From the NCBI GenBank assembly GCA_038062375.1, contig JBBTXG010000002.1:1-60736 (forward strand): 60,736 nt of DNA, given 5' to 3'. This stretch comes from Patescibacteria group bacterium. GTDB lineage: Bacteria > Patescibacteriota > Minisyncoccia > Minisyncoccales > UBA10102. The position numbers and the translations under genes are program-made. The notes beneath the pieces were generated by a model. It ran no database searches, was not told the origin of the DNA, and saw only the letters and a list, made by a program, of their open reading frames with translations. Shown piece by piece: positions 4,975 through 49,219 of this stretch; the first letter of the stretch is position 1, and every line of letters begins with the position of its first letter.

Positions 4975-4987
4975 AAAGAGTATCAGA

Positions 4988-11250: not shown

Positions 11251-11252
11251 AG

Positions 11253-12380: not shown

Positions 12381-12387
12381 AAAATTT

Positions 12388-12885
12388 TTATTTTTTGATT
12401 TGTAATTTCCTTGCTGGTATTCCAGCAACCACCGTATTTGGAGAAACGTCTTTATTCACAAAGCTCATTGCGCCTACCATTGCGTTTTCTCCCACCGTGA
12501 CTCCGGGCATAATCACCGAGTGCGTTCCTATTTTACAGTTCTTTTTTAAGATGACTTGCCCTTCCTTTCCATCAATCGTCGAAACAGAATAGATAGAACA
12601 ATGGGAACCAATCTGCACCCCATCTTCAACCACCACGCCGTTTTTTGCATTGATGTACGTAAAGGTACCAATATCGGTGTATCTCCCGAGTTTTAAGTTT
12701 TTTGCGTGATGAACCAGCCAGTAATATTCGGTGAGCTTCCGTTCCTCGATCTTTGGGTCCTTCCAGCTGGGAAACCTTGTCTTGCCACCAATACTCCTCA
12801 TCCCTTGAGAAATTTGTTTTCTCTTCTTGTCATTCTTATGTCCCAAGAGATTCCTTTGATTTCTGGAATTTCTAACGGTATTCAT
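12388..12885 (-). CDS. Hexapeptide-repeat acetyltransferase
   Basis: Left-handed beta-helix repeats (IGTHSVIMPGVTVGENAMVGAMSFVNKDV..VVAGIPA). Confidence 0.88.
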   Translation of the reverse strand: MNTVRNSRNQRNLLGHKNDKKRKQISQGMRSIGGKTRFPSWKDPKIEERKLTEYYWLVHHAKNLKLGRYTDIGTFTYINAKNGVVVEDGVQIGSHCSIYSVSTIDGKEGQVILKKNCKIGTHSVIMPGVTVGENAMVGAMSFVNKDVSPNTVVAGIPARKLQIKK

Positions 12886-33596: not shown

Positions 33597-34435
33597 GTGG
33601 TGCTGCTTCTCTCTAACCATACATCTCCTTGATAAGGAGATCCCTCTTTTATCCGTCGTACTTGGAATCCCTTGGTGCCAAGAAACTTCACGAGCGCAGA
33701 TCCCGTGTTCTTCGTATCTCCCAAATGGTTGTGGTACTCCAACCGTATCTCTCTGATGCGAGAAAAGTATGGATCGGGAAGATGATACAAAATATCGTAT
33801 TCTGCTCCTTCGCAATCTATCTTCAAAAGATCACATCGCAAAATCCCATTGCTTTCAAAAACTTCGTCTAAAGGAATGCACTCTACCTCTATGAATTTTT
33901 GAGCAGAGATCTTTCCTGGAGAAAACTGCGCGTGAAAAGGCGACTCATGGATAGGAAGAAAAGAGTGGAGGGGCGATTCTCCCAGGTACAATCGTCTTTT
34001 CTCTCGCCTTCCACTGACCGCATAGGGATAGGGAGAAATTCTGTCTTCCAATCCATTGCGTGCAATGTTTTCTTTGAGCAGAGAGAAATTCTCTGGCATT
34101 GGCTCATAGGCATATACCCTTACCCCCGGCGATTGACACGCATACAGAGCATAGACTCCAATGTTTGCCCCAATATCAATAAGGACGGCGTTTGGAGGAG
34201 GGGGTTCTCCATAATCTTTTTTGATAAAGATCACTGCAATGGTGCCTGAACTCATGCCGTCTCCGGTTCTGATGTTCATGCCGTTTCGCAATGCGTAGAC
34301 ACGCCCCTTGTTGGTGAGTCCGACATAATCGAAAACAAACGGAATCCAATTCTTAACACTTCTCCAAATGCGTGGAATATACGTTACGTATGAAAAGGCG
34401 TGGGGAGAAACGATCTCTTTGATTTTCCTTCTCAT
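33593..34435 (-). CDS. FkbM family methyltransferase
   Basis: Motifs IDIGANIG, YAYEP and DLLKIDCEGAEY. Confidence 0.9.
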   Translation of the reverse strand: MRRKIKEIVSPHAFSYVTYIPRIWRSVKNWIPFVFDYVGLTNKGRVYALRNGMNIRTGDGMSSGTIAVIFIKKDYGEPPPPNAVLIDIGANIGVYALYACQSPGVRVYAYEPMPENFSLLKENIARNGLEDRISPYPYAVSGRREKRRLYLGESPLHSFLPIHESPFHAQFSPGKISAQKFIEVECIPLDEVFESNGILRCDLLKIDCEGAEYDILYHLPDPYFSRIREIRLEYHNHLGDTKNTGSALVKFLGTKGFQVRRIKEGSPYQGDVWLERSSTT

Positions 34436-36432
34436 AACTTAAGCGCCTCTATTCTCATGGGGAATACGAGGTGCACCTGTTCCTTGGGCGGCCTCGATGC
34501 ATTGGTATCATCCACCTCTCCAAGAGAAAAGAGAACTCGAAAGAAAAAGGTGTCTCGCATTCTCACAAAATGAATGCGAGGGATCGCGGCAATCGTTGCC
34601 ATATCAGTGGTCAGGCGCACCACCTTTTCTCGATCTCCCACTTCAAGCTGTCCTGCCGTATTTCCAAGTCCGGAGGAAGATGATACCAAAAATGAAACAG
34701 GGCCAGGTTCCATGCGTTCCACGTCTTTAAGTGAAAATACCTCCGGGAACTCTCCTCCATTTTTGCAGCTGTAAAAAAGTTGCTTTGGCAAGAACGCTTC
34801 CGGATGCAATGTAACGATGCCCGAGACAAAGGAAGAGGGAGATAAGTCCTGCAACTCAAACTCATAAGAAAGTTCTATCCAGTTGCCGTGAGAAGGAATC
34901 AACCATATCTTGGCAATGGTGCCCAGAGGGGTTTTGATCGTCCCTTTCACCTCGAGACCGCGGGGCTTCTCTGCAATCTCTGGCTCCACAAATTCCAAAT
35001 CTGTTATTTTTGGCTTTCCAAACATTTCAATGATCGTGTGTCCGGTATAAAAGTCAGCTCCCAAGTGAATATCTTCGTAATACCCGTGATGCAAGGTACC
35101 AACCAAGGGTTTCCGAGAAACCTTCTTGAATATCGCAGAATCAACTGCCAACCCCCTTCTCCTGTTCAGCACAATCTGAAGGGAGGCAGTCTCCACGGTT
35201 AAGAGATTTTGTTCGCGAGAAACTCTTGGGTTCGTTTTGGCGCTCTTGCCTATCAAGGTTCCTGAATTCTCTTTTTCTTTTGGGAGAAAGGGCTGCGCAA
35301 AAGAAAGCATTGCTCTAAGACTCTTTTGAAACTTTTGGAATTTCTGCTCTTCAATATGCGTTCGAAAATCACTTGACCACAAAAAACAGAGTTCTTTCCA
35401 TTTTTCTTTTTTTTCTTTGAGAGAAGCTCTCCACCTCTTTAACCCTTTCAAGATCCGGTAGCACGCACTATTTATTTGGAGGTTATCTCTTCCTGCGAGC
35501 GCCCATCGCGTAGGCGTATATTTTTCTTGCTTCTTCACAGGGATCGGCTGCCCGGGTGCATCCAATCGAAGCTCATGGAACGCGTGAGGACGTTTGGCAA
35601 GATGAAGTACTTGAGAAGGAAAAACAATCTCCACGCTTGAATCTTCCAAGAGCGCGGCAAACAACTTTCTGATTCTGTTCCACTCTCCTTCCGGATGAAC
35701 AACCCCTTCCGTATGATAGCGGCCTGGCCGATAATCGAAAATCTCCGCGTCATTGCCATAGAGGGGAAAAAATCGAGTCTGCTTTGCCTTATGGGTTGCC
35801 AGAGAATCCATATACTCATCAAGTTCCAACTCTCCATGAACGTATCGCTGGAATTTTTGAAATGCAATGGATTGGTTCCAGATCAAGGGGATCTTGGCGC
35901 CAACCTGATCTGTTGCATATTGAGGATGATACTGCCATTCTTTCTTCCATTCGGGATGTTCCTTGTGAGGATTCTCCCACTCCATCACAAGGGCCTTGAA
36001 TCCCGCCTCTTTGTATAATTGAACTAATCCTTGGGAATATGTTTGCTCATTGACATAGGCAACAGACGGACGCCTCGAAAGAAAGGATTGATATACTTCG
36101 TTTCCGAGCCGAAGATTCCATTGATTCACCTCTGCTGGCACCAAGGGTCCGATAATCTGGGCATAGCCTGATCCCACGAATTCACATTTCCCTTCTTTGA
36201 GCAACTCTTTGAGCTTGGAGACCCAGGAAGAATCAACCTTGTTGATTTGCTCTAATGTATATCCAGGAGCCTCAATTCCTAAGGGAACATTCAATTCTTC
36301 CACTACATGCAAAAGAGGCCAGTAGCATTTCTCAACAAGAACTGGCCATTCTTTTTCTGGAATCGAAGAATAGAGGATATTCAAATGGAAAACGGTATAA
36401 AGCTCAAGTCTTCCTTTTCTTACACCTCCCAT
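34432..36432 (-). CDS. Glycoside hydrolase family 57-like protein
   Basis: Motifs VFHLN, KCYWPLL, GSGYAQIIGPLVP, NEQTY and YGNDAEIF. Start trimmed to the ATG at 36432. Confidence 0.75.
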   Translation of the reverse strand: MGGVRKGRLELYTVFHLNILYSSIPEKEWPVLVEKCYWPLLHVVEELNVPLGIEAPGYTLEQINKVDSSWVSKLKELLKEGKCEFVGSGYAQIIGPLVPAEVNQWNLRLGNEVYQSFLSRRPSVAYVNEQTYSQGLVQLYKEAGFKALVMEWENPHKEHPEWKKEWQYHPQYATDQVGAKIPLIWNQSIAFQKFQRYVHGELELDEYMDSLATHKAKQTRFFPLYGNDAEIFDYRPGRYHTEGVVHPEGEWNRIRKLFAALLEDSSVEIVFPSQVLHLAKRPHAFHELRLDAPGQPIPVKKQEKYTPTRWALAGRDNLQINSACYRILKGLKRWRASLKEKKEKWKELCFLWSSDFRTHIEEQKFQKFQKSLRAMLSFAQPFLPKEKENSGTLIGKSAKTNPRVSREQNLLTVETASLQIVLNRRRGLAVDSAIFKKVSRKPLVGTLHHGYYEDIHLGADFYTGHTIIEMFGKPKITDLEFVEPEIAEKPRGLEVKGTIKTPLGTIAKIWLIPSHGNWIELSYEFELQDLSPSSFVSGIVTLHPEAFLPKQLFYSCKNGGEFPEVFSLKDVERMEPGPVSFLVSSSSGLGNTAGQLEVGDREKVVRLTTDMATIAAIPRIHFVRMRDTFFFRVLFSLGEVDDTNASRPPKEQVHLVFPMRIEALKL

Positions 36433-36531
36433 CTGCCTAGTATATCCAACCTGTCCCTCAAAATCAACTTGACAGAACTCACTTCCATATACTATTCTAT
36501 TTCCAGAAAGACCGATGGAACTCATCTTTTG

Positions 36532-36569
36532 TACTATACTATAGATGCTATAGCATTTATAGTATAGTA
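36532..36569. repeat. 38-bp loop-less palindrome (one mismatch)
   Basis: TACTATACTATA-g-ATGCTA|TAGCAT-t-TATAGTATAGTA. Confidence 0.85.
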
Positions 36570-36689
36570 AATTTCGATTACGCAAATCAGAATATCTTTT
36601 GGCCTACTGTTGAGTGGGCAATTCTAAAGAAGTTGGCTTTCGTGAAATGGTTAGTAGTTAGACGCTCAACATCTAACACCACAGAAGGG

Positions 36690-36747: not shown

Positions 36748-37551
36748 ATGCTAAAAGGTAAACTCATTGGATTTGGTACAAGGTCAGAAGTCTTTGAGTG
36801 GGGGGAAGACGACGCACTCAAACTTTCCCGTGAAGAAACTTATCCCCTCAAACAAGAATTTAGTAACACCGAAGCGGCTTATCGTGCTGGCCTGCCTGTG
36901 CCTGAGCCAAAAGAACTTCTACGCATAGAAGGAAGGGATGCGATTGTCTTTGAGCGCATCCACCACAAAACAACCCTATGGGCACAACTCACAGATGAGG
37001 TGCCGTGGATGTTTATCGAACGTGCTCGTGCGTTCGCAGAACTCCACGTAAGAATACATAACTCGCGTATGGATGGACTTCCGCGCCAAAGAGAGTTCCT
37101 TGGCGAGCACATCCAACGCGCTCTCATATCTCCAAGCCAGAAGGAAACCATACTCAGAGTTCTTAATAAGTTGCCTGAAGGGATGAGTCCTTGCCACTTT
37201 GATTTCCATCCGGACAACATCTTGGTTTGTCCAGATGACTACATCATCGTGGATTGGCCACTGGCAAACTGTGGAAATCCTCTTGCAGATGTGGCAAGGA
37301 CCATAGTTCTCATCCAGCAGGGGTCACTCTCGGCTTATAACTCCCGCCCGTGGATCGCAGACCAAGAATTTCGTGCGTGGTTTCTTCATTTCTACCTCAC
37401 CCGATACCTCGAACTCCGTCCAGGCTCACAGACAGAGCTTAAATGGTGGGAAGGAATAATTGCAGCTGCGCGTCTCGCTGAAAATATTCGCCATGAACAA
37501 AGCCTCCTTCTCCAAAGAGTAGAGGCTACAGTGGCACGAACAGACACATAG
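36748..37551 (+). CDS. Aminoglycoside phosphotransferase (APH/ChoK)-family kinase
   Basis: IGFGTRSEVF P-loop, Brenner motif HFDFHPDNI, IVDW and GNPLADVAR. Confidence 0.88.
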   Translation: MLKGKLIGFGTRSEVFEWGEDDALKLSREETYPLKQEFSNTEAAYRAGLPVPEPKELLRIEGRDAIVFERIHHKTTLWAQLTDEVPWMFIERARAFAELHVRIHNSRMDGLPRQREFLGEHIQRALISPSQKETILRVLNKLPEGMSPCHFDFHPDNILVCPDDYIIVDWPLANCGNPLADVARTIVLIQQGSLSAYNSRPWIADQEFRAWFLHFYLTRYLELRPGSQTELKWWEGIIAAARLAENIRHEQSLLLQRVEATVARTDT

Positions 37552-37562
37552 TGCATCAAAAT

Positions 37563-37606
37563 GCCACCAGATTTCCATGTATAAGGTTTTGGTGGCTTTT
37601 TCTTTT
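37563..37606 (+). terminator. Terminator after the APH gene
   Basis: GCCACCA...TGGTGGC followed by TTTTTCTTTT. Confidence 0.6.
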
Positions 37607-37734
37607 GTCTCAAGCAAGTTGATGAGAAGAAAAACTATATAAAAAGAAACTTTCCTGTTCGCTGTTAGGAAAGCTTCATATTCGCAGACAAGAAAAACTT
37701 AACCCTGGGGAATGCGATGAGGAAAAACACTTTC

Positions 37735-38109
37735 TCAATAGAGCACCAAGTAAATCACCTGGCCGTTACGAGCCTCAAGATCGACAAGACGTTCGTGACC
37801 AGTGTAGTTTATCCTAGCTGCCAGAATAATTTCATCTCCATGTTCTGCCTGCGAAAGAACTTCAATGGGGAAACGACGCCCCCCAGGCACCCTCTCGAAA
37901 GGCTTCTCGGATTTTATCAAGTTCACATAGGCAGTGTACCGCCTTGTAGTATCGTGAGGCACAGGACCCGACGGTACTGACTGAAAGATTTCTGCAACTG
38001 CACCGGGATATCCAGGACCATAGGGTTCCAAGTAAGTGATCCCGGGTATCCCGAGATACAATGAAGACATCCCTACATAACTTATCTTTGGTTGTACACT
38101 CTGAACCAT
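37735..38109 (-). CDS. Hypothetical protein (about 124 aa)
   Basis: Fills an otherwise empty gap; G-rich SD-like GGGGGGAGA before the ATG; no recognised motif. Confidence 0.5.
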   Translation of the reverse strand: MVQSVQPKISYVGMSSLYLGIPGITYLEPYGPGYPGAVAEIFQSVPSGPVPHDTTRRYTAYVNLIKSEKPFERVPGGRRFPIEVLSQAEHGDEIILAARINYTGHERLVDLEARNGQVIYLVLY

Positions 38110-38278
38110 GATTCTCCCCCCCATTGCACTGGTTTTGAAATTTTAAGGGAGTTTCTCCCACCAGTGTATGCTAAATATATTAATACATTACATTTACAAT
38201 TGGATCAATCACTCCAAGATTATGTGACTGTTCGTGCTGGGACGTACAAGTCGTGAGTTGTGCTTTGGAGGATCTTCT

Positions 38279-38300
38279 TATTCTTGCATATGCAAGAATA
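38279..38300. repeat. Perfect 22-bp loop-less palindrome
   Basis: TATTCTTGCAT|ATGCAAGAATA. Confidence 0.85.
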
Positions 38301-38460
38301 GAAAGATACAAAATTTTACGAAATTGCGCCCTCGACTGGCAACTTTTTGAGCGAGGCGATTTTCGTTTTGAGGAAGTTCAATTTCTCAAACCCAATGAAT
38401 TAGGCGTATTTCCTGCGCTATCGTAGCATACTTGGATTGTCTCTATTTGATTTTTTTGCC

Positions 38461-39510
38461 TCAAGCGAGTTGATCAAAAGAGATCAAAGTATCTTCTTTG
38501 ATATCCACGATGGCGCGCTTCCCAATCACATCGGGAAGATAGCGGCTTTCCAGACCAGTGCCTGGATTCTTAAGCGTGAGCATGTCTCTTGTGATGATCG
38601 TGCCTTGAGGGATACGACTCACCGAAACAATCGATACATGGTACTTTCTTCTTGTAACCCACTCGGGCGCAAGAATCCTCCGCTCTCCCGATCCTAACGC
38701 CTTCTCAATGATCCGTGCTTCCTGCACAAGGCGCTTGAGCTCCTCGGGCTCCACGGAGAGCTTGTGATCAAAACCCATCATGTTGCGATCAAGGGTAATA
38801 TGGCGCTCAACCGCCTTTGCTCCCAAAGCAACTGCGGCTAAGGAAATAACAATGCCGACCTCGTGGCCTGAATAGCCAATCGGAACATCGGGATAGCGCT
38901 GCTGCAATGTTTGCATGATACGAAGGTTCGCAAGCTCTGGCTGCAGGGGATACGAAGAAATGCAATGAAAAACAAGCAAAGGTATGTTGTGGGCTTTGAT
39001 CGTCTTCACTGCCTGATCAATTTCATCAATGGTCGACATCCCTGTGGAAATGAGCATGGGTTTACCCTTTCTTGCAATGTGTTCAAGCAACGGCAAGTTC
39101 GTAAGAGAGTGGCTCGCGAGTTTAAAAGCAGGCACCCCAAGTTCATCGATAAAATCAGCGGAGTTGACATCAAAAGCAGTGCACATGAACATAATTCCTT
39201 TCTGGTCGCAATACATTTTCAGTTCACGATATTGCTCTTCTGAAAACTCAACATGTTCTCGGATCTTTCGATAGGTATTACCGAATTCGGGAAATCTGCT
39301 ATCAGGTGCGTCGAGCACTTCTTTGATCGCAAGGTTTGCGACATCCCGCTTTTGAAATTTTGCGCAATCTGCACCAGCTTCTTTTGCCGCATCAATGAGT
39401 TTCTTTGCAACCTCCATATCCCCATTGTGATTTAAGCCGATCTCCGCAATGACAAAGCAAGGGCTCTCGCCCCCAATGGTTTTATCTTGGATTTGAAATG
39501 TGTTGCTCAT
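38461..39510 (-). CDS. neuB: N-acetylneuraminate/nonulosonate synthase family (NeuB/SpsE) with SAF domain
   Basis: Motifs IAEIGLNHNGD, AKFQKR, FHCISSYP, GYSGHE, ERHITLDR and KNPGTG. Confidence 0.9.
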   Translation of the reverse strand: MSNTFQIQDKTIGGESPCFVIAEIGLNHNGDMEVAKKLIDAAKEAGADCAKFQKRDVANLAIKEVLDAPDSRFPEFGNTYRKIREHVEFSEEQYRELKMYCDQKGIMFMCTAFDVNSADFIDELGVPAFKLASHSLTNLPLLEHIARKGKPMLISTGMSTIDEIDQAVKTIKAHNIPLLVFHCISSYPLQPELANLRIMQTLQQRYPDVPIGYSGHEVGIVISLAAVALGAKAVERHITLDRNMMGFDHKLSVEPEELKRLVQEARIIEKALGSGERRILAPEWVTRRKYHVSIVSVSRIPQGTIITRDMLTLKNPGTGLESRYLPDVIGKRAIVDIKEDTLISFDQLA

Positions 39511-39517
39511 ACAGTTT

Positions 39518-40081
39518 TCAAGAGGCAAGTATTCCCATGAATCTTGTTTTTATTTCCTCGGGGGTATAAGGGATGATTTTCGTGCCCTCCAGTTGTTCTT
39601 TCTCAACCTTTGCTAAAAGAAAATGGGGTCCTTGTTTTTCGCGAATTTGTTCGAGCGCGGCCTGGAGTTCTTCTCTGCTCTGAACTCTCCATACGCTTGG
39701 ATATCCGCATGCCTTGGCAACTTCACTCAAGTCAATCTTTGCAGAAAGCGTCTCTTGTCCTCCGGTGGTGGCATAGATCTCGTTATCAAGAACCACATGC
39801 ACCAGGTTGGCAGGCTGCAAATACCCTACCATAGCAAGATTATCAAGATTCATCAAGACATTCCCATCGCCGTCAATCACCACGACACGCCGCTCTTTTC
39901 TCTCAAGCGCAATGCCCAATCCAATGGAAACGGTCTTGCCCATCGAAGCTAACATATAAAAATTGCGTGGAGCATCGCGCTTGAGATATCCTTCTCTGCT
40001 AATCCTTCCATTGGTAAATATAAAGACCGCCTTCTCATCCATCGCATCATATACAATAGTCAGAGCTTCATCTCGTCTCAT
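39518..40081 (-). CDS. ThDP-dependent phosphonopyruvate/sulfopyruvate decarboxylase, beta (TPP-binding) subunit
   Basis: Motifs NGRISRE, NFYMLASMG, IDGDGNVLMNL and LDNEIYATTGGQ. Confidence 0.88.
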   Translation of the reverse strand: MRRDEALTIVYDAMDEKAVFIFTNGRISREGYLKRDAPRNFYMLASMGKTVSIGLGIALERKERRVVVIDGDGNVLMNLDNLAMVGYLQPANLVHVVLDNEIYATTGGQETLSAKIDLSEVAKACGYPSVWRVQSREELQAALEQIREKQGPHFLLAKVEKEQLEGTKIIPYTPEEIKTRFMGILAS

Positions 40082-40577
40082 CGAGGTATCCCCTCCGCAT
40101 AATCAAAGCAGCAGAGGTCTTCTCCTGCTCTCCTATGCGGAGGGCTTTTTCTATTTCTCCTTTATAATTCTCCCTCTCAATGAGAAAACCCGGCATCTGG
40201 ATAGCTTCGAGAAAGGGAAAGGTAATCTTGCCCCAGTCAAGATGCTGCACTTCGTCTTTTCCGTCGAATCCTCGCCAGGCAACCAAAAACAAGAATGGAA
40301 TTTTGTAGAGTACATTTAGTGTCATAATGGCATCGGCAGCGTTTCCAAGTCCTGAATTTTGAAAGACCATACACGGTTTCTTCCCTGCCAGATACGCTCC
40401 CACTCCCATTCCCACTGCCACATCTTCGCACGTCGCAGGGACATACGAAAGTCCCCGCTCTTGGATCAAACGAATCACTGCGCGCAAGACCGAATCTGGC
40501 ACTCCACAGAAAAAATTCGTTCCGCGCGACACCAGTTCGTCTATCAATTCTCCTGACGTAAGGATGTTGTTATTCAT
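40068..40577 (-). CDS. Phosphonopyruvate/sulfopyruvate decarboxylase, alpha subunit
   Basis: Motifs FFCGVPDS, QNSGLGN and WRG...DEVQH...GKIT, which are Ppd/AepY-like. Confidence 0.88.
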   Translation of the reverse strand: MNNNILTSGELIDELVSRGTNFFCGVPDSVLRAVIRLIQERGLSYVPATCEDVAVGMGVGAYLAGKKPCMVFQNSGLGNAADAIMTLNVLYKIPFLFLVAWRGFDGKDEVQHLDWGKITFPFLEAIQMPGFLIERENYKGEIEKALRIGEQEKTSAALIMRRGYLDETR

Positions 40578-41793
40578 GCTGCTCCATTTGTACTTTTATT
40601 TGTGCTACTGCCTGCTGCACGTATCTGCGAGCCTGCGATTGACTTTTTCCAGTCCCAATGACCACTGCTACCTTATGAATGTCGGTTGGGGTAGGAGGAA
40701 GAATGGGATCTCTTTTGAAGTTCGAGAGAAGCTGTACAAATTTTATCCCTGGCATGGTCGCCGCCCTCCGGATGCCTTTGATAGAGCGAATCTTCCCTGG
40801 CCGAGTAAATACATAACGTTCAATGGAGGGTTTCGAATGCTTGGGAAGTAAATCTTCTTCATTGACTCTATCGCCAACGCTCATCTGGATCAAGGGTTTT
40901 AAGATTTGAATGCCATTTTGGAGAGGTGTCTGCGCAGAACAAAAGAATCCTCCGCTCGTCCGGCAAGCCATTTCAAGTATCTTTGGCCCGTCACGAACGA
41001 TAATAATATCTCCTTTTGCAGCTCCAAAACGAATCTGGAGTGCTTCGATTGCCTGTTCAATAGCCAGTTTTACTCGAGCGAGTTCTTTGAAAGAAAGTTT
41101 CGTGGGCATGTCGCCGCCGTCTTCGACAAAACGAGGAAGATAGCGCTTCGTGTCTCCATAATTGCGATCAGAAAAAGCAGTATGATACACTTTTCCCTCC
41201 CAGACTACAGCCTCTGAACTCAAATCATGGCCTTGGAGATATTCTTCGATAAGCACGACTTTCTGGTGAGAAAACGAAAGAGCTTCTTGGTAGGCATGCG
41301 CCACCTCACGCACATTTGACACCAGGCTCACTCCCCTGGAAGCCGAATTGTCAATGGGCTTGCATACGCAAGGAAAACCAATCGACTGCGCTCTCTCTCG
41401 GGCTTGCTTGATTGTGTGTGCAGTCTCAAATTTCGGGCAGGGCACGTCCTGCGCCTTCAACCGTTCAATCCGCTGCAATTTATTCGTTGCTCGCTCTGCT
41501 ACTTTTGAATCAAGCCCCGGAAGTCCAAGACTCTTTGCAATGTGAGCTACCACAACCGGCATCTCCACTGCATGCGCCATCACTCCATGCACCTTATACT
41601 TCTTGCCGATCTGAATCATTGCTTGCGCGTCTTGAATATCCCCAGACAAACCAATATGAGCTTCTTTCAAACCTCGAGCATAAGGATTTCCATCTACTGC
41701 GAGAACACGGTATCCAAGACTCCGAGCAATGCGAATTGCAATCGTCTGGTCCGGACCTGCGCCAAGAAGCATGATTGTTTTTTGTCTTCTCAT
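40570..41793 (-). CDS. ATP-grasp domain ligase
   Basis: Motifs LLGAGPDQ, KPIDNSASRGV, IEEYLQG and EMACRTSGG. Confidence 0.88.
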   Translation of the reverse strand: MRRQKTIMLLGAGPDQTIAIRIARSLGYRVLAVDGNPYARGLKEAHIGLSGDIQDAQAMIQIGKKYKVHGVMAHAVEMPVVVAHIAKSLGLPGLDSKVAERATNKLQRIERLKAQDVPCPKFETAHTIKQARERAQSIGFPCVCKPIDNSASRGVSLVSNVREVAHAYQEALSFSHQKVVLIEEYLQGHDLSSEAVVWEGKVYHTAFSDRNYGDTKRYLPRFVEDGGDMPTKLSFKELARVKLAIEQAIEALQIRFGAAKGDIIIVRDGPKILEMACRTSGGFFCSAQTPLQNGIQILKPLIQMSVGDRVNEEDLLPKHSKPSIERYVFTRPGKIRSIKGIRRAATMPGIKFVQLLSNFKRDPILPPTPTDIHKVAVVIGTGKSQSQARRYVQQAVAQIKVQMEQHE

Positions 41794-42953
41794 GGTATTT
41801 CATCTCTCCATTTGCATACCTCCTCCAATAACCTCTGAAGCATTGATGCCTCAATCGGTACCAAAGAGACCCCGGGCAAGCCCTTATCCATGAGCACGCG
41901 CTCTACAAACCAGTTTTTCAAATCAGGCGAAAAGCGTTGATCCTCCAAAGTAAGAGTGCCCGCCACATCCTTCACAAAACCTTCGATATGTTCAATGAAT
42001 ACTGCGGAATCAGAAATGGACTCCCCGTAGACATAGTGGTGCATCTCTCTCATTTCTTGTGTGCCTGCATTTTGCTCTCGATAGAATTTCAGCACATGGG
42101 GCAAAATTCTCCCTACCACTTCTCCGTGCGAAAGTGCACCATGCGGTTCCATCGCTGCAGACATCGTATGAACAACACCTGTTCTTGCGTTGGTGATCAC
42201 CAATCCTCCGATCGTTCCCGCGAGCATCATCTGCTCTCGCGACACGACATCTTCGGGATGTCCGAAAACTTTTGGAAGTGTGGTGAGAATAATTCTCATT
42301 CCCAAAAGTGCCAATGTTTTGGAATAGAGACTGCTTTGCGTATTCAGATACCCTTCGATGCAATGCACAAGAGCGTCCAACCCCGTAGCCCCAGTAATTC
42401 CTTTTGGCAGATTGACCGTGAGCAAAGGATCGACAAGAGCGAGCCAAGGACATACCATCTCTGACTTAATGGTGAACTTGCGCTTCTGCTTCTTATCAGA
42501 GAATACCGCGTACATCGTTACTTCGCTTCCCGTTCCTGCGGTCGTGGGCACTGCAAGGAGGGGAAGAGAAGGAAAAAGAATTTTCGCGGGGTCCAGAAAA
42601 TCTCCACACGTTCCTCCGTTCGCTGCAAGAAGCGCGATGTGCTTTCCGGTATCGAGCACACTTCCTCCTCCGACGGCAATCACCATGTCGCATCCGTGTT
42701 CTTTCAGCGCATCCCTTCCTTTTTCTGGAACAGAACAATCTGGTTCTGGAGTCACCTCATCAAATTGCACGTACTCCACGTTTGCATCTCTCAATAGAGA
42801 ATCGATCCTTTCGGCTAATCCCTGGGCCTCAAGAAATCCCTTGTAACTCACAAGGAGTGCCTTCTTCCCTCGCATGCGCGCCCTCTCCCCGAGTTGGTCA
42901 AACGCTCCAACTCCGAATATGACTTTCGTTCGTGTCCCTATCTCGTAGATCAT
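41790..42953 (-). CDS. Iron-containing alcohol dehydrogenase (phosphonoacetaldehyde reductase-like)
   Basis: Motifs AVGGGSVLDTGK and VPTTAGTGSEVT; metal ligands in DALVHCIE, VVHTM and SHG. Confidence 0.88.
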   Translation of the reverse strand: MIYEIGTRTKVIFGVGAFDQLGERARMRGKKALLVSYKGFLEAQGLAERIDSLLRDANVEYVQFDEVTPEPDCSVPEKGRDALKEHGCDMVIAVGGGSVLDTGKHIALLAANGGTCGDFLDPAKILFPSLPLLAVPTTAGTGSEVTMYAVFSDKKQKRKFTIKSEMVCPWLALVDPLLTVNLPKGITGATGLDALVHCIEGYLNTQSSLYSKTLALLGMRIILTTLPKVFGHPEDVVSREQMMLAGTIGGLVITNARTGVVHTMSAAMEPHGALSHGEVVGRILPHVLKFYREQNAGTQEMREMHHYVYGESISDSAVFIEHIEGFVKDVAGTLTLEDQRFSPDLKNWFVERVLMDKGLPGVSLVPIEASMLQRLLEEVCKWRDEIP

Positions 42954-42983
42954 GCTCCACTATAAAAAACCTTTGAGAGTAAG

Positions 42984-44165
42984 TCAAACGATACGCTGCT
43001 CGAGTCGTTCAACAAAGCGTTTCATATCAAAATCTTTTGCCCTCAAGAACGCCCTTTCTTTCAACATCTTTGATGTATGTTCATTTTTCAAAAGTTCAAG
43101 GATTGCTTTTCCAAATAATTCCTCTTGGAGGGAAGGTTCCATTGCTCCGGTGAATTCGCTTGATCCTACCGGCACCAAAATTCCATATTCTCCATACTCC
43201 ACATCTCGAGCTTGCGCACGAAAGGAGCTCGAGGGCGCAAGAATCTCCCGAGGACCCGAGGTGCAATCAGTAGAAACAACGGGAAGACCGCACGCCATTG
43301 CTTCCACGATACTCATCGGGAATCCTTCCCATGAAGAACACAATACAAATACTTTCGCTTTCGCAAGAAATTTATAGGGATTTGTCTGCCAGCCCAAGAA
43401 ATGCACGAGTTCTGCTATCCCGAGTTCGTTGGCAAGTTCTTTCAGAATCTTTTCCCATTCCCCTTCTCCAAGAATTACAAGGTGTGTTCCGGGCAATCCT
43501 TCTTTCACTCTCAAAAATGCTTCGAGAAGATGCCACTGTGCTTTTTCTTTACTCAACCTACCCATCGTGATTACCACCGGATGAGAGAAGAGCTGCTCAA
43601 AACTTGGCTCGAGCGGTTCTCTCGAAAGTTGTTCGATTTTCTCAAGATCAATGGGGTTATACCAAACTTCAATCTTTTCTTTTGGAACGCCAAAATGCTT
43701 CTCCAGATCTTCGCCCGCAGCTCTTGAAACCACAATGACGCATGCTGCCTTATGGAACAAAAACCGAGCTATGAGCTTATAGAGAAATCCCCAGAAACCT
43801 TTTTTTGCTTGAGAGGGGAAAGAATCTACTCTCACCATTGGTCTTGTGTTGAGCAAGAGCGCAATCAACGCAGCAGCTCCTCCAAAGGTAATCACTCCAT
43901 CGGGGTGCTCTTCTTTTATAATCTTTCGAAATTTGAAAAATCGAGGAATCAGACGATAGAATCGCAGGAAAAAATTTCTCGAAAGTGGTTCATCGAGACT
44001 CAAAAGCCGCGCTTCATAAGGGTATGCAATTTTTTTCTCAAAAAGTACAATGAGAGACTCTACGGAATCTGCAAGATGAAGTGAAAGTTCAGAAACTAGA
44101 CGTTCTCCTCCTCCGTAAAAAAGTGTAGGGATAAAAAAGAGAATTTTTTTCTTTTGTTGGCTCAT
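42984..44165 (-). CDS. Glycosyltransferase family 4 (PglJ-like)
   Basis: Motifs GGGERLV, GRLSKEK and EGFPMSIVEAMACGLPVVSTDCTSGPREIL. Confidence 0.92.
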   Translation of the reverse strand: MSQQKKKILFFIPTLFYGGGERLVSELSLHLADSVESLIVLFEKKIAYPYEARLLSLDEPLSRNFFLRFYRLIPRFFKFRKIIKEEHPDGVITFGGAAALIALLLNTRPMVRVDSFPSQAKKGFWGFLYKLIARFLFHKAACVIVVSRAAGEDLEKHFGVPKEKIEVWYNPIDLEKIEQLSREPLEPSFEQLFSHPVVITMGRLSKEKAQWHLLEAFLRVKEGLPGTHLVILGEGEWEKILKELANELGIAELVHFLGWQTNPYKFLAKAKVFVLCSSWEGFPMSIVEAMACGLPVVSTDCTSGPREILAPSSSFRAQARDVEYGEYGILVPVGSSEFTGAMEPSLQEELFGKAILELLKNEHTSKMLKERAFLRAKDFDMKRFVERLEQRIV

Positions 44166-45409
44166 GAAGGTGAACTCAAAAGAAAGGAGAATACGCGCTT
44201 GGCCGCGTTCCCATCTTGATGCACGAAACAAAGATCTCTCTGACGTTTCCTTGCTTCTTTGAAATGATCTTCTCTTTTCAACGTCTCTTCTAAAATCTTG
44301 AGAAAATCTTCAAACGTATACGCCTTTGGGCCTGGAGTAAACTCATCGTAGTCAAAATAGAGTTCTCTGTCCTTGGTAACATATTTTTCCAAATCGTATG
44401 CAAAAAATATCTCTGGCCGATCCAACAAAAGAAAATCGACGAAAATGGACGAGTAGTCAGTAACCAGAACGTCGGCGAGTTTGAGCAAAGGGTAGGAATC
44501 CGTCACTGGCAAAACGAATATGATATGGGAATACTCTCCTTGTGGTATTGAGATTCGAGTAAAGGGATGAACTTTTACCACGAAAAATGCGTGGGACCTC
44601 TCGAGCAATCCATTGAGCATTTCGAGCTTCTCCCTCTCTTCTAAAAACGACTGATCGCCCGTATCTCGAAAAGTGGGTGCATAGAGTACTACTTTTGAAC
44701 CTTTTTGTTTTAATTCCTGAATCTTTTCATGCGCATGCAGATCAACGCCAACTTCAGCTCCCGGAATCTCGCGCATCAATACATCAGTCCTTGGACACCC
44801 TACCTGGATAATTCTTTCCTCGGGAATGTCAAATGCAGACCGAAAAATTCCGGTATAGAGAGGAGAAGGACTTGCTACATAATCTGGCTTGACAAAGCGC
44901 CAAGGAAAAAGAAAGCGCATTGCCAATTTAAGAATTCCTTGAGAAGCAAAAAGGAGAACTTCGCTTGACTCTCCTTTTTTCACATCCTGCTCCATCTTTT
45001 TGATCGGAAGCGCATGGAACAAATTGATGATCTTTGCCCCTCCCGATAACCAATAGCTGATCACTTCAACAGAGGTATCCGTGATAAAATACTTTGCTCT
45101 CAAAAGGTACCAGATTCCTTGAAAAGATTTCCCTTGCACTGCAAGGCATCCTTTTCCCCGAAGCTCGTCTCCAAGCTCTTCATTCCGCGAAATCCATATT
45201 GCCTTGATACCAGAATCTTTTGCGTTATTTTGGATATGCAAAAAGAGATACTTGCCATTCCCCTCAAACTTCCTCGGATGCCCAAACACCCAAATCTTCT
45301 CCTCTCGCGGCACAAGGTAAGAAAAAAATCGAATGAGAAATAAAAAGGGGTGTACAAGAAGACAAAAAAGATACCGTCTTATTTTCTCCCCATTCATGTT
45401 TATCTTCAT
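44162..45409 (-). CDS. CDP-glycerol glycerophosphotransferase family (TagB/TagF-like)
   Basis: Motifs FHALPIKK, GCPRTD, LYAPTFRD and LVTDYSSIFVDFLLLDRP. Confidence 0.9.
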   Translation of the reverse strand: MKINMNGEKIRRYLFCLLVHPFLFLIRFFSYLVPREEKIWVFGHPRKFEGNGKYLFLHIQNNAKDSGIKAIWISRNEELGDELRGKGCLAVQGKSFQGIWYLLRAKYFITDTSVEVISYWLSGGAKIINLFHALPIKKMEQDVKKGESSEVLLFASQGILKLAMRFLFPWRFVKPDYVASPSPLYTGIFRSAFDIPEERIIQVGCPRTDVLMREIPGAEVGVDLHAHEKIQELKQKGSKVVLYAPTFRDTGDQSFLEEREKLEMLNGLLERSHAFFVVKVHPFTRISIPQGEYSHIIFVLPVTDSYPLLKLADVLVTDYSSIFVDFLLLDRPEIFFAYDLEKYVTKDRELYFDYDEFTPGPKAYTFEDFLKILEETLKREDHFKEARKRQRDLCFVHQDGNAAKRVFSFLLSSPS

Positions 45410-45760: not shown

Positions 45761-48700
45761 TTAGCTCGGATTCACGAGAGAACCAGCAAAGATGTCTCCA
45801 CGGAAGATAATATTTGGATACTCGTATTCACCGATTGCGTCGATGCCCCATTCAAGTTTGTCTGCAGCAAGATTATCATCGAGCCATAGCTGTATGGCGT
45901 CCCCGTTATCCTCCAGTTCCAGAGTGTCTGAATAGACATAGAGTTTCTTGGTTTGACCCGCAGGTATCGTGAAGCTGTCGGTAGTGAAGTCAAATGTTAC
46001 AGAAGTGCTTGATTGTTCAGAACCAGCTGAACCTGCAGCAGTCGCGTCAAGCGTGGTTCCATCTTGATCCTTGAGCGTGAACACTTCAAGGTTTCCATCA
46101 GAATCGTTAATGCTCTGGGAGAGACTCACGGTGAGCAGGCTCGTGCTGTTAAAGGTTACATCCTCTCCTGCTGCGGCTTTCACGTCAAAGATTGCAAGCA
46201 AGCTATTCGAGCTTTCCACAAGATTTCCTTGTGGCGATGCGGAGTTCACGCTAAAGTATGGTCTGCTCTTAAAGAATGTGTGAGCCTTTCCGTCTCGATC
46301 TGTCGCATCGTTCACCGCACTTCCCGAAGCCTTTCCCGTAGTATTTGCCTTGTTAAGCTTCACTTGCACGGTAATGTCGTTGTCTGCAGCAGCAGTCGTG
46401 GTGTCATACAAGTCACCTTTCACCGTAATCTTCTTGTTGCTATTTCCAGGAACTACCAGCGTGCCATCAGTAAACGGGATGTTGAAGTCGTCAGGATCAG
46501 TGGAAGATCCTTTTCCTCCAGGAGCTGTTCCGAGCAAGGTCGCGCCATCATAGAACTTGTAGGTAGCAACCTTATAGCCTCCCGTAACGTCAATGTCCAT
46601 GTCATCGAGATCAAGACTCTCCACTGCGTTGGCTGCCAATCTGAATACTGCCAGTGTTACGTCTTTTCCATTCGCAAGTACCAAATCTGCACTTGGAGTG
46701 GAAGCATCCAAAGAAGTTGTCAACGTACCCGCAGAAGCTACAGTCATTGCCTGACCGCTCCCGGTAAATGTTGCCGTAATAGAGTTTCCGGTATCAGCTC
46801 CAGTTACCGTAGCAGCGCTGATTTTTAGTGTATGCGTTCCGCTCGTGGCTCCTGTCACCAGATCAGCAATAACCGCCACTGCTGTGCTTGTTTCTTTCTT
46901 TACCGTAATAGTCTGCGTTAACGTATAGGCAAGCGTATCTGCCGTGTTTGCAGCTGTCTCGTCGAACTGCGCAGCGTTTCCTATGCGCGTTTCGTAGGCA
47001 TCCCCTCTGGAGCTGTTCGCTGAAGTCAAATCAACCCATAGTTCGGTATTGTCTACGTCTTGAGCATCAGCTCCGCTTGCAGTGGTATTGGTAACGGTCA
47101 AGGAAGTTACGTGTACAGCTTCGCCTGAAGCGCTTGCATTAAGAGCAACGGTTGCGAAGACAAGGTCTTGAATCCCTGCGGCAATGCTTTTTGCAGCAGG
47201 TTCCGTAAGTGTTTCTGCCTTCAACGCTCCAGCTTTCACGGTAAGAGTATTCGCGTTCACTTCGGTGTTCGCAGGAGTCGGGGTGATTGAATTGTTGGAC
47301 GTCATCCCTGTTGCGGTGATATCAGTTGCATCCGCATCAGCAATACCAACTCGAATGGTATCGCTCGCCGATGTTGCAGTCGCGATGTTTGCTGTTACCG
47401 TAATAGGATTCGTTCCGATGGGAAGAATAATCGTGTCAGTGAATGTTACCGAACCCTCGTATGCGGTGCTGTTTGCTCCTGTCACATCAGTCGTGCTCAG
47501 ATCTGCCGGACCAGCAAGCAATTTCCCGTCTTTGTCTAACACTTTGACGCTTGTTACTTCAGTCTCTACCATGGTGCCCAAGTCGAAAGAAAACTTCAAA
47601 GAAGTAATCTTGATGGATTCACCCTGCACAAGGAAGTCAAAGACTCCGAGTTTTTGGCTGTTTGCTTGAGCAATATTTCCTGTCGCGGGGGTAGAGGTAG
47701 CCTTCGAAGTTGCTAAAGAGCCATTGTTGATTGTCTGATTCGCATTCGCCAATCCATCATTGCTGTTGGTCCAGTCTGAAGCATCATTTCCGTCTGGAGT
47801 AATGTAGAATCCATAGGTATTGCCTTTCACGGACATGAGCACATCGCTTCCATCCATGAGATCAGCATTCACCGTAAGACTCACTCCGCTGATTATATCA
47901 AGTTGCACTCTGAAGCGACGTGTCTCTCCTTTATCAACAACGATATTCAATCCGCTCCATGATGCTTTTCCATCCGACGTCCACTGGCTGGTGCCCAAGG
48001 ACACATTTTTGCTTACATCAAACAACTCGATATTGCTCGTGTCTGACAAGGAAGCTGAACCTGACTCTGCGATCGTAATCTGCTCGATTGTTGCGGCCTC
48101 CGTAGACCCAACCACTACCTTGAAGGTATTCACGATCACATCCTTGTCGCCAACATCAGGTGTAGAGTCTGTCAGTGCTCCATCCTCCATTACTTCTACC
48201 GTGCCAATGGCAAGAGCAACTGTAGTAAACGCATTCCCTTTAACAGGGAAGGTACCGCTTACCGTAGCTGATCCTGCTGATATGTCAGCAGCGGAATTAA
48301 TACCAAGCGCTACTGTCTTTCCGCCAGCAGTGCCATTCAGAATACCAGCTCGAATGTAGAATGCTTTACTTGTATTAGCGGCAATCTTCAATGCAGGCGA
48401 GAAAGTCAGCTGTGCTTTATTATCAGTACTCAACGTGCCAATGGAACCAATTTTTACTCCATTTTCGTCGAGAATTTTAATGTTCTCGATATCGGCGTTC
48501 GCAGTCAATCCATACCTTGTCACCCAAACGGTGCTCACCGATACATCCTGCATCCCCGCTGTAAGCCAGAATTTGGTCATATTGGCATTTCCCTCATCAG
48601 CAATGGTGGCAGAAGCTGGAGTATCAGAACCCAAAGTCACTTGCAAGGTATTTCCAGACACTGGAGGAACTTCAGGCGGTGCGGGAGGTGTTGTCGGCGT

Positions 48701-49219
48701 TGGACCTGGGGCAGGTGTTGGTGTCGGAGCAGCAGCAAGCCAACCATTCAACTTTGTCCTTGTGGAAGGACCGACAAATCCTGTACCCATTGACAAACCC
48801 ACTGGTACCAATATGTCGCTCGCATATTTCTCCTGGAACTTCATTACAGCAACTCTTGTTAAGGGACCAAAGTACTGGCTCTCGTTTCCTGGGGAACCAG
48901 CGCCCGAAGAAGCAACCTGCGTCATTGAATCAGAGTTTAAGACCATCTGGAGATACTTTACGTCAGATCCACTCGCTCCCTGCACGAGGTTCTTGGTGAA
49001 CGTGAAACCTGCTGGAATCCCAGCAATCCCTCCTCCTGGGCCACCCTGCAATACGTTCAACTGGGTCTGCAACTGCGCGATTGTCGCTAAAAGCTGCTGA
49101 ATCTGCGCTTGCAACTCTCCAGCAGTTTGCGCCTGTGCTGCGCCTGAAGGCACAACAACGCTCACTGCAACAATTGCAGCCATCGCGCTGAAAACAGTCT
49201 TTTTTACGAAATTACTCAT
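45761..49219 (-). CDS. S-layer-like secreted protein with peptidoglycan-binding-like domain and Ig-like beta repeats
   Basis: Signal peptide, Gln-rich coiled coil, FQEKYASDILVPVG..GTGFVGPSTRTKLN, Pro-rich linker, then about 950 aa of Thr/Ala/Ser/Asp-rich beta sequence. Confidence 0.72.
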   Translation of the reverse strand: MSNFVKKTVFSAMAAIVAVSVVVPSGAAQAQTAGELQAQIQQLLATIAQLQTQLNVLQGGPGGGIAGIPAGFTFTKNLVQGASGSDVKYLQMVLNSDSMTQVASSGAGSPGNESQYFGPLTRVAVMKFQEKYASDILVPVGLSMGTGFVGPSTRTKLNGWLAAAPTPTPAPGPTPTTPPAPPEVPPVSGNTLQVTLGSDTPASATIADEGNANMTKFWLTAGMQDVSVSTVWVTRYGLTANADIENIKILDENGVKIGSIGTLSTDNKAQLTFSPALKIAANTSKAFYIRAGILNGTAGGKTVALGINSAADISAGSATVSGTFPVKGNAFTTVALAIGTVEVMEDGALTDSTPDVGDKDVIVNTFKVVVGSTEAATIEQITIAESGSASLSDTSNIELFDVSKNVSLGTSQWTSDGKASWSGLNIVVDKGETRRFRVQLDIISGVSLTVNADLMDGSDVLMSVKGNTYGFYITPDGNDASDWTNSNDGLANANQTINNGSLATSKATSTPATGNIAQANSQKLGVFDFLVQGESIKITSLKFSFDLGTMVETEVTSVKVLDKDGKLLAGPADLSTTDVTGANSTAYEGSVTFTDTIILPIGTNPITVTANIATATSASDTIRVGIADADATDITATGMTSNNSITPTPANTEVNANTLTVKAGALKAETLTEPAAKSIAAGIQDLVFATVALNASASGEAVHVTSLTVTNTTASGADAQDVDNTELWVDLTSANSSRGDAYETRIGNAAQFDETAANTADTLAYTLTQTITVKKETSTAVAVIADLVTGATSGTHTLKISAATVTGADTGNSITATFTGSGQAMTVASAGTLTTSLDASTPSADLVLANGKDVTLAVFRLAANAVESLDLDDMDIDVTGGYKVATYKFYDGATLLGTAPGGKGSSTDPDDFNIPFTDGTLVVPGNSNKKITVKGDLYDTTTAAADNDITVQVKLNKANTTGKASGSAVNDATDRDGKAHTFFKSRPYFSVNSASPQGNLVESSNSLLAIFDVKAAAGEDVTFNSTSLLTVSLSQSINDSDGNLEVFTLKDQDGTTLDATAAGSAGSEQSSTSVTFDFTTDSFTIPAGQTKKLYVYSDTLELEDNGDAIQLWLDDNLAADKLEWGIDAIGEYEYPNIIFRGDIFAGSLVNPS

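Follow-up and report, generated by a model that had tools for sequence, protein, structure and literature searches.

The closest solved relative of the decarboxylase considered here belongs to phosphonate biosynthesis. RhiEF is reported as the split phosphonopyruvate decarboxylase (Ppd) of the rhizocticin pathway (PDB 9IZ3/9IZ4) (PMC12141560) and is described as working with a phosphoenolpyruvate (PEP) mutase, PepM (PMC12141560, PMC8942020); one of these accounts speaks of split Ppd genes as "occasionally observed" in phosphonate clusters (PMC8942020). In Segatella copri, a cluster of the 2-hydroxyethylphosphonate (HEP) type combines aepX (a fusion of a LicC-like domain, a Fom1-like cytidylyltransferase (CyTase) domain and PepM) with the decarboxylase gene aepY, a phosphonoacetaldehyde reductase gene and a gene of the CDP-glycerol glycerophosphotransferase family. 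Split alpha/beta enzymes are also found in ComDE, which serves coenzyme M synthesis and the sulfolactate breakdown of Roseobacter bacteria such as Leisingera, and LumK and LumL are presented as split thiamine diphosphate (ThDP) enzymes of a similar kind that act on non-phosphonate substrates (PMC12746152). In this study, we describe a further split decarboxylase of this family, encoded in a seven-gene module at positions 38461-45409 of a 60,736-nucleotide window from a Patescibacteria group bacterium (GCA_038062375.1). The window, by which we mean the whole stretch of DNA analysed, is contig 2 (JBBTXG010000002.1) of a genome of 670,814 bases in 16 contigs that is rated 86.6% complete.

The decarboxylase descends from phosphonopyruvate decarboxylases and now forms a separate clade that is tied to NeuB, a PEP-condensing enzyme of the nonulosonic-acid-synthase type, and not to PEP mutase. 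Five genes, encoding an iron-containing alcohol dehydrogenase (Fe-ADH), an ATP-grasp ligase, the alpha and beta subunits of the decarboxylase and NeuB, make up a cassette that here follows a TagF-like gene and a GT4 glycosyltransferase gene within a large surface-glycan locus. We favor, with a probability of roughly 0.6, the explanation that this is a laterally acquired, NeuB-linked tailoring cassette whose Ppd-derived decarboxylase acts on a 2-oxo acid that is not a phosphonate. An initial annotation of the window had proposed a phosphonoglycan module. A surface-glycan tailoring module with a Ppd-type decarboxylase, an Fe-ADH and a TagF-like protein is supported, and the carbon-phosphorus (C-P) compound or isethionate envisaged as its product is not supported, given a clade of its own tied to NeuB and ATP-grasp, altered family-invariant residues and the lack of detectable PepM, ComA, ComC or cysteate synthase.

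Compared with the systems above, the window resembles RhiE/RhiF in having a two-gene alpha/beta ThDP decarboxylase with the catalytic Glu, the His of a WRG...H motif and a GDG...N motif, yet its neighbors are NeuB, ATP-grasp and TagF-like genes where RhiEF has the RhiG aldolase and PepM. Like the S. copri cluster, it unites a Ppd-family decarboxylase, an Fe-ADH and a TagF-like protein in one glycan locus (37%, 31% and 24% identity, respectively); unlike that cluster, it has no PepM and no nucleotidyltransferase in its operon, has NeuB and ATP-grasp in addition, and differs at the signature residues described below. As in ComDE, alpha and beta are separate proteins and beta 169 is hydrophobic, but the enzyme scores below both ComDE cut-offs, carries other motifs, lies apart in the tree and is accompanied by no sulfopyruvate-supply genes that we could find.

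The NeuB-linked decarboxylase clade

The alpha (PYR) subunit (40068..40577, minus strand, 169 amino acids, Pfam TPP_enzyme_N) and the beta (PP) subunit (39518..40081, minus strand, 187 amino acids, Pfam TPP_enzyme_C) are followed by the NeuB-family gene (38461..39528, minus strand, 355 amino acids, Pfam NeuB at 285 bits and SAF at 36 bits). A quick maximum-likelihood analysis of 107 beta sequences places the window subunit in a 15-row clade (SH-aLRT 97) with metagenome homologues and loci L100-L103, all PepM-linked rows lying outside, and makes this clade sister (96) to L104 and P0041. Two references from plasmid records, a PGAP-annotated Leisingera ComE and Segatella AepY, were added to the tree. 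The clade stays apart from both, with ComE on a long branch and its placement unsure; thus the beta tree does not show the grouping with ComDE that would have counted against the initial annotation, and shows no grouping with the reference Ppd either.

Homologues at 58-67% identity came from metagenome-derived collections only. One of these, the 4.7 kb contig L100, carries a row of ATP-grasp (56% identity), Fe-ADH (54%), alpha (65%), beta (64%) and NeuB (68%) genes, in which the order of ATP-grasp and Fe-ADH is reversed relative to the window and no PepM is found, while in L104 a beta gene (46%) is followed by neuB (47%). In all three loci, the window, L100 and L104, which are 46-68% identical, the end of the beta gene runs up to or into the start of neuB. 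Furthermore, alpha, beta and NeuB homologues at 61-68% identity share the longest-contig sizes 316424, 10388, 5864 and 3442, with the size 7176 common to beta and NeuB homologues and 3413 to alpha and NeuB homologues; the matching sizes are an indirect sign that these homologues share contigs. Within the phylum, 9 of 400 other sampled genomes carry a relative of the decarboxylase, all at 43% identity or less, and the cassette therefore looks acquired, probably by lateral transfer. Searches of viral contigs gave no relatives, and plasmids gave relatives at 39% identity or less.

The ordinary relatives present a different setting. Species-representative genomes hold at least 587 relatives of the window beta subunit, and among the best 80 of these, which are 40-56% identical, a beta gene is present at every locus, alpha adjoins it in 78 and most pairs are split. 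That the window enzyme is divided between two genes, as the initial annotation noted, is correct, but the split state is not unusual in itself since RhiEF (PDB 9IZ3) and most of these 80 decarboxylases share it. No match to NeuB, ATP-grasp or TagF-like proteins was found at any of the best 80 loci. Their recurrent neighbors are instead a nucleotidyltransferase/CDP-alcohol phosphatidyltransferase gene (53/80), a class-V aminotransferase (48/80) and an LPG_synthase_TM protein (24/80), a phosphonolipid-type set that often lies inside hopanoid clusters. Split Ppd-type pairs (loci L009-L088) are common in Nitrospinota, Nitrospirota, Binatia, Scalindua, Omnitrophota and Chloroflexota, and the hopanoid clusters around them include HpnH-, HpnI-, HpnJ-, HpnK- and HpnN-like genes and a squalene-hopene cyclase.

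We surveyed PepM in 52 genomes with a relative, 43 of them from the 80 loci and nine from Patescibacteria. TIGR02320 matched in 46 of the 52 at E <= 0.001 and in 40 at E <= 1e-77. The distance between PepM and Ppd is no more than about 2.5 kb in eight of the nine Patescibacteria genomes, and thus in all eight that hold both genes. In the remaining one, G387, no PepM was found genome-wide, and the decarboxylase is split and placed on a long branch. The G387 decarboxylase (locus L099, contig 8, 19000-38999, at about 4000-12500) is 39% identical to that of the window and keeps family-type residues except for alpha V110 and Q111. It is flanked by methyltransferases, an APH-like kinase, a PHP-domain protein, a Pol-beta-type nucleotidyltransferase and a GT4 gene, and may represent a second kind of PepM-less module.

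The supply of the expected substrates was sought across the whole genome. Neither TIGR02320 nor PF13714 gave a PEP mutase match in the 670,814 bases, the lone PF13714 match being an 11.7-bit chance match inside neuB, and a tblastn search with S. copri AepX found only a cytidylyltransferase domain on contig 7 and no PepM part. The initial annotation saw no pepM in the window, and the genome-wide search for PepM and for ComA and ComC that it proposed extends this result to the remainder of the available sequence. The models for ComA and ComC (Ldh_2) had no match, the search not including ComB, and the best match to the cysteate synthase model was a ThrC-like gene at 16.4 bits, against a cut-off of 324.9. 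Given its adjacency to Ppd in other Patescibacteria, PepM is likely to be absent, without this being proven at 86.6% completeness; the module of the window stands well inside a 60-kb contig and has no PepM next to it.

Clade-specific residues also set the enzyme apart. We compared 40 alpha and 40 beta rows from PepM-holding genomes (38 with strong and two with fragmentary PepM matches) with the clade, represented by 17 beta rows and, for alpha, by the window and 14 further rows. At alpha 82 the clade has Asp, where 39 of the 40 PepM-linked rows, AepY and ComD have Asn. At alpha 110 it has Val, Ile or Ala (Val in the window), the PepM-linked rows having Pro throughout (40/40), AepY Pro and ComD Ala. 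Alpha 50 is Cys in the clade and Arg (32), Asn (5) or Ser (3) in the 40 PepM-linked rows, Asn in AepY and Lys in ComD. In the beta subunit, position 45 is Ala or Ser in 17/17 clade rows (Ala in the window) and position 80 is Asp in 15/17, whereas both are Gly in all 40 PepM-linked rows, in AepY and in ComE. Beta 105 is Thr in the clade and Ser in 36/40 PepM-linked rows, AepY and ComE, and beta 169 is Ile, Thr or Val (Ile in the window) as opposed to Arg in 38/40 PepM-linked rows and AepY, and Val in ComE. The window also has Gln at alpha 111, where 34/40 PepM-linked rows have Glu. Together with T86 these make up an alpha signature of C50, D82, T86, V110 and Q111 and a beta signature of A45, D80, T105 and I169. 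In the alignments, RhiE and RhiF have R50 and N82 in alpha and R169 in beta, where the window has C, D and I.

Nine further relatives from genomes in which PepM has no match or a weak one retain the family residues at beta 45, 80 and 169 and alpha R50; they vary at other sites, with V110 and Q111 in G387 and E82, E110 and T105 in L040 and L066. Likewise, 14 of 15 unlabelled relatives retain G45, G80 and R169, the exception being P0041, the sister of L104. By the register of the ThDP motif, we take beta 105 to be the pocket residue that is numbered I472 in Zymomonas pyruvate decarboxylase. The other swaps may also lie in the active site, and we take the changes as a sign of a changed substrate. 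Because ComE lacks R169 and alpha 50 is variable, we reduced the strict signature to alpha D82, beta D80 and beta A/S45, the only changes still unique to the clade; for the same reasons, an argument that two lost arginines indicate a non-anionic substrate is weakened, since alpha 50 varies among PepM-linked rows and beta 169 is Val in true ComE.

In its motifs the alpha subunit is of the Ppd kind. The GVPDS and WRG..DEVQH motifs reported in the initial annotation are present, at residues 25-29 and within WRGFDGKDEVQH at 101-112, respectively. They resemble those of Segatella AepY (GVPDS and WRGRPGHDEPQH) and differ from those of Leisingera ComD, the single ComD compared (TVPCK and YRGELREPVACQ). 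The ThDP core is intact, with alpha E51 and H112 and beta G71-D72-G73 and N100 invariant across the alignments, and the best solved relative is RhiE/RhiF (RhiE, PDB 9iz3_A, E 5.5e-24; RhiF, 9iz3_B, E 3.3e-28). On the TIGR03297 Ppd model alpha scores 122.9 bits and beta 189.3, as compared with 100.6 bits on the ComD model (cut-off 148) and 173.7 on the ComE model (cut-off 221.5; TIGR03845/TIGR03846). PepM-linked split beta subunits score 166-190 on the Ppd model, a range that includes the window beta. We did not retain these scores as a test between Ppd and ComDE, since the two models give PepM-linked split beta subunits much the same score, with 0/21 reaching the ComE cut-off.

Partner enzymes of the module

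Open reading frames (ORFs) together with Pfam and NCBIfam profile searches substantiate the seven genes, from TagF-like to NeuB, that the initial annotation placed here; all lie on the minus strand. Upstream of the decarboxylase genes described above, the first gene (44162..45409, 415 amino acids) encodes a TagF-like protein of the CDP-alditol/glycerol phosphotransferase family (Pfam Glyphos_transf, 230.4 bits, residues 32-410), in which the PF04464 match spans profile positions 8-365 of 367 and the NCBIfam TarF, TarL and TarB models all score far below their cut-offs. The GT4 glycosyltransferase (42984..44231, 415 amino acids, Pfam Glycos_transf_1 and Glyco_transf_4), whose true start may lie downstream of the TTG, has PglJ as its best NCBIfam match (173 bits against a cut-off of 500). 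The Fe-ADH (41790..42953, 387 amino acids, Pfam Fe-ADH and ADH_Fe_C) scores 180-223 bits on the NCBIfam models ErcA, GbsB, FucO, PsrA (Phn_Fe-ADH, 187.5), 4-hydroxybutyrate dehydrogenase and SarD, and these scores point to no substrate because all are far below cut-off. The ATP-grasp ligase (40570..41793, 407 amino acids) has an L-amino-acid-ligase C-terminal domain (Pfam ATP-grasp_3, LAL_C2 and others), and its PDB relatives are PurD-like 4dim, the L-amino acid ligase 3vot and PurT.

By longest-ORF coordinates, the TagF-like and GT4 ORFs overlap by 70 nucleotides and GT4 and Fe-ADH are separated by 30, followed by overlaps of 4 (Fe-ADH/ATP-grasp), 8 (ATP-grasp/alpha), 14 (alpha/beta) and 11 nucleotides (beta/NeuB). 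Such packing fits co-transcription of the seven genes. A promoter and terminator scan gave no signal above chance.

The window NeuB scores 344.4 bits on TIGR03569 (cut-off 399.65) and 245.5 on PseI (cut-off 340.25), and aligns end to end with B. subtilis SpsE (1vli, the best PDB match) and with N. meningitidis NeuB. Many NeuB-family proteins share 52-59% identity with it, and several of these are fusions with a CMP-nonulosonic acid (NulO) synthetase. At the position of N. meningitidis NeuB R314, whose role we take to be essential and of which variants appear among the PDB matches (4ipi, 4ipj), an Asn is found in 120 of 121 aligned sequences, that is, the window protein and its 120 nearest homologues. 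We therefore rejected the idea that a NeuB lacking this Arg takes an unusual substrate, the Asn being common to 120/121 sequences, CMP-NulO synthetase fusions included. No NeuC-type epimerase (PF02350) scored over cut-off in the genome, and the one CMP-NulO synthetase of the genome is encoded on contig 7, next to PseB, PseC and two other NeuB paralogues. These belong to a second glycan locus (contig 7, about 1-23000; L111, L008), with NeuB paralogues of 349 and 451 amino acids, a KpsS/BFO_1060-like transferase, a sulfotransferase, a fused sulfate adenylyltransferase/APS kinase, CysQ and a PAPS-reductase-like gene, a content that points to a sulfated, pseudaminic-acid-type surface glycan.

Substrate and competing explanations

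From the gene content, the clade, its linkage, the residue changes and the lack of detectable supply genes, all of which are observed, we infer the identity of the substrate and every chemical step that follows. The alpha-beta enzyme would decarboxylate a 2-oxo acid other than phosphonopyruvate or sulfopyruvate to give an aldehyde, and the Fe-ADH would reduce the resulting carbonyl. The ATP-grasp ligase may then form an amide or ester by way of an acyl phosphate, for instance by joining the resulting unit, or a nonulosonic acid, to an amine, and the GT4 and TagF-like proteins would build the decorated unit into the glycan. The leading candidates for the substrate are small acids that are neutral or carry a hydroxyl group, such as pyruvate or hydroxypyruvate, and a 4-hydroxy-2-oxo acid that NeuB would form by condensing an aldehyde with PEP. 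A small neutral or hydroxylated substrate would suit the enzyme better than an anionic phosphonate or sulfonate, given that no PepM or sulfopyruvate routes were found and that new acidic side chains stand at positions otherwise held by Gly or Asn. Hydroxypyruvate or a related acid is a candidate because contig 16 encodes a dehydrogenase like glyoxylate/hydroxypyruvate reductases and because such a gene also lies beside the alpha gene of the clade member L101.

Partial parallels to this chemistry exist. In the capsule of C. jejuni, an ATP-grasp amidoligase joins ethanolamine phosphate or serinol phosphate to glucuronate, with pyridoxal phosphate (PLP) enzymes in the pathway. The likeness lies in a glycan-locus ATP-grasp enzyme that attaches a small unit made by its neighbors, and the difference in the PLP enzymes there as opposed to a ThDP decarboxylase and an alcohol dehydrogenase here. 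Tailoring of nonulosonic acids, which yields N-acyl variants of pseudaminic and legionaminic acid such as the Pse5Am7Gra of Tannerella, offers a further likeness, in that a NeuB-type synthase stands beside enzymes able both to make a small hydroxylated acid and to ligate it; which enzymes produce the Am and Gra groups is given as unknown in the 2017 account (PMC5378307). In the literature covered, outside which lie subscription journals and supplements, no paper was found to describe the cassette or to link a phosphono- or sulfopyruvate decarboxylase to synthases of pseudaminic, legionaminic or sialic acid.

It is possible, if unlikely, that NeuB and the decarboxylase act in sequence, NeuB condensing PEP with an aldehyde to a 4-hydroxy-2-oxo acid that becomes a glycan building block, a PEP-driven route not described so far. 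Such an acid might be reduced to an acid of the 3-deoxy-aldonic type, which the ATP-grasp enzyme would ligate as an N-acyl side chain. Alternatively, its decarboxylation and reduction might yield a deoxy-polyol for incorporation into the glycan through the TagF-like protein. The former case would lead to groups resembling the 2-methoxy-4,5,6-trihydroxy-hexanoyl group that is reported on the flagellar nonulosonic acid of Treponema denticola (PMC13439194), a possible parallel. If the sequential route holds, an enzyme of phosphonate ancestry would have been re-used for a new class of glycan building block.

Several observations weigh against a non-phosphonate cassette tied to NeuB. Its clade context was seen directly in three loci (the window, L100 and L104), and in the clade member L101 (52%) beta is not followed by NeuB, the alpha and beta genes standing beside a weak TagF-like fragment and a divergently transcribed gene for a D-2-hydroxyacid dehydrogenase. 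The place of the changed residues in the active site is presumed, and the loss of beta R169 is common to the clade and true ComE (Val). The nearest tree neighbors of the clade are PepM-linked Ppd-type enzymes, and the simple sum of the alpha and beta Ppd scores, 312.2, comes close to the fused-protein cut-off of 312.5. The layout of Fe-ADH, TagF-like and Ppd genes is that of the S. copri HEP-type cluster, and 86.6% completeness leaves room for PepM on unassembled DNA.

That the alpha-beta enzyme decarboxylates sulfopyruvate, with the Fe-ADH making isethionate from sulfoacetaldehyde and the sulfonate being attached to the glycan, is unlikely. Public sources label close homologues "sulfopyruvate decarboxylase", albeit automatically, and beta 169 is hydrophobic as in Leisingera ComE. 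The Sat/CysC, CysQ, PAPS-reductase-like and sulfotransferase genes of contig 7 would provide activated sulfate and perhaps sulfite, and the window encodes an aspartate-aminotransferase-type protein (10012-11250). However, the sulfate-activation genes lie beside the sulfotransferase and are explained by O-sulfation, and the route to sulfopyruvate lacks ComA, ComC and cysteate synthase as far as the searches above extend. The ComD and ComE scores are below cut-off, the motifs are unlike those of the ComD reference, and in the tree the ComE reference takes another position, albeit on its long branch. We also rejected a cysteate route through the lone ThrC-like gene of contig 13, given its 16.4 bits on the cysteate synthase model. 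This gene (contig 13, 10458-11870; L115:1159-2571) encodes a PLP enzyme of 470 amino acids that scores 141.6 bits against a threonine synthase cut-off of 167.1, and is odd for a genome with little biosynthesis.

We likewise give little credence to the absence of any shared pathway, in which NeuB would make an ordinary nonulosonic acid, the TagF-like and GT4 proteins a glycerol-phosphate polymer, and the decarboxylase, alcohol dehydrogenase and ATP-grasp ligase would be unrelated, their proximity owing to chance or operon economy. The window NeuB does look like an ordinary member of a large subclade, by its 52-59% identities and its shared Asn, and pairs of TagF-like and GT4 proteins are known to act as polymerases by themselves. 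Against this stand the beta/NeuB junction, which overlaps or abuts in three loci, the recurrence of the five-gene block in L100 and the matching contig sizes of alpha, beta and NeuB homologues. An ordinary nonulosonic acid pathway is also short of a NeuC-type epimerase here, and the single CMP-NulO synthetase adjoins another NeuB paralogue on contig 7.

The phosphonoglycan explanation, improbable in our estimate, holds that alpha-beta is a true Ppd, that the Fe-ADH makes HEP and the TagF-like protein attaches it, and that PepM and a cytidylyltransferase lie on the unassembled DNA. It has in its favor the Ppd-type motifs, scores that are higher for Ppd than for ComD (122.9 versus 100.6) and ComE (189.3 versus 173.7), the nesting of the clade among PepM-linked relatives, the matching enzyme types of the S. 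copri cluster (aepX, aepY, reductase and TagF-like) and the incomplete genome. Yet PepM was found neither by two hidden Markov models and tblastn in the genome nor on L100, and it adjoins Ppd in 8/8 Patescibacteria genomes holding both. The swaps at family-invariant residues are clade-specific and include beta R169 (Arg in 38/40 PepM-linked rows, AepY and RhiF), and the conserved linkage to NeuB and ATP-grasp was not found in phosphonate clusters. The initial annotation had suggested that pepM was displaced by an insert at 36.5-38.4 kb or that the precursor is scavenged. No PepM remnant was detected in that interval (tblastn with S. copri AepX, E <= 10), and imported 2-aminoethylphosphonate or HEP would presumably need no phosphonopyruvate decarboxylase.

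Two PF01467-type domains occur elsewhere in the genome, one in a 387-amino-acid fusion on contig 7 (1237-2400, minus strand, L111; P0072) and one in a contig-5 protein of 151 amino acids. On the TagD model (cut-off 165.4) the former scores 56.7 bits, and the latter has no match at E <= 1e-10. The N-terminus of P0072, which carries the PF01467 cytidylyltransferase-like domain, matches ethanolamine-phosphate cytidylyltransferase, TagD and the CyTase domain of Fom1 (PDB 5x3d, E 1.1e-11), and its 39-42% relatives adjoin PepM in the Patescibacteria G225 and G375, which would favor a phosphonate pathway. The layout recalls Fom1, a CyTase joined to PepM, but the C-terminus is the second half of a pyruvate-kinase (PK) barrel without lid or C domain, PK-like and not PepM-like. 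In the genome G161, both parts are encoded by separate ORFs in a KpsS-like glycan locus without a decarboxylase. With this one close relative so placed, we rejected the fusion as the missing activating enzyme, and that it should replace PepM and make the module a PepM-independent C-P route is exceedingly improbable.

The preferred explanation, a NeuB-linked cassette with a non-phosphonate substrate, bears on how such genes are annotated. Ppd-family genes and pepM are widely used as markers of phosphonate biosynthesis, and pipelines label the clade "sulfopyruvate decarboxylase"; both labels are probably wrong here. Identification of the substrate would add a new reaction to the ThDP decarboxylase family, could explain some odd nonulosonic-acid side chains, the enzymes for which are largely unknown, and would correct over-calls of phosphonate or coenzyme-M-like metabolism in metagenomes. 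That an ultrasmall, probably host-attached bacterium with a 670-kb genome devotes seven genes to decoration suggests that the surface glycan matters for its lifestyle.

The surrounding glycan locus

The remainder of the window is a large glycan locus, with PglF/E/D/C-like genes, a flippase, further GT4 genes and a pathway for a C-methylated, N-formylated amino-deoxy sugar. Four long minus-strand ORFs in this locus, 45761-49219 (1152 amino acids), 25502-29875 (1457), 6308-8098 (596) and 32070-33815 (581), match no Pfam family at E <= 0.001. Weak sub-cut-off Pfam matches at E <= 0.01 link the 1457-residue protein with PMT_2 and the 581-residue protein with DUF2304, and the four may be polymerases, ligases or surface proteins.

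Downstream of neuB, the roughly 900 bases at 37552-38460 hold only short overlapping ORFs of 87-129 amino acids on both strands. The window as a whole gave no match to an Rfam family and no tRNA, and hence none in this 37.55-38.46 kb gap, which may be decayed sequence or an unknown RNA. It is followed by a gene for an APH-family, small-molecule-kinase-like protein (36748..37551, plus strand, Pfam APH 47.8 bits), whose membership in the pathway is uncertain. We rejected this gene as a conserved partner of the decarboxylase, as only a 72-residue match to the APH-like gene near the G387 decarboxylase (L099) was found. Beyond the gap and downstream of the module, a 717-amino-acid protein with a GH57 domain (34432-36585, minus strand) is encoded before an FkbM-type methyltransferase (33593-34435, minus strand). 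GH57 enzymes are usually active on alpha-glucans, and one is therefore unexpected in a surface-glycan locus.

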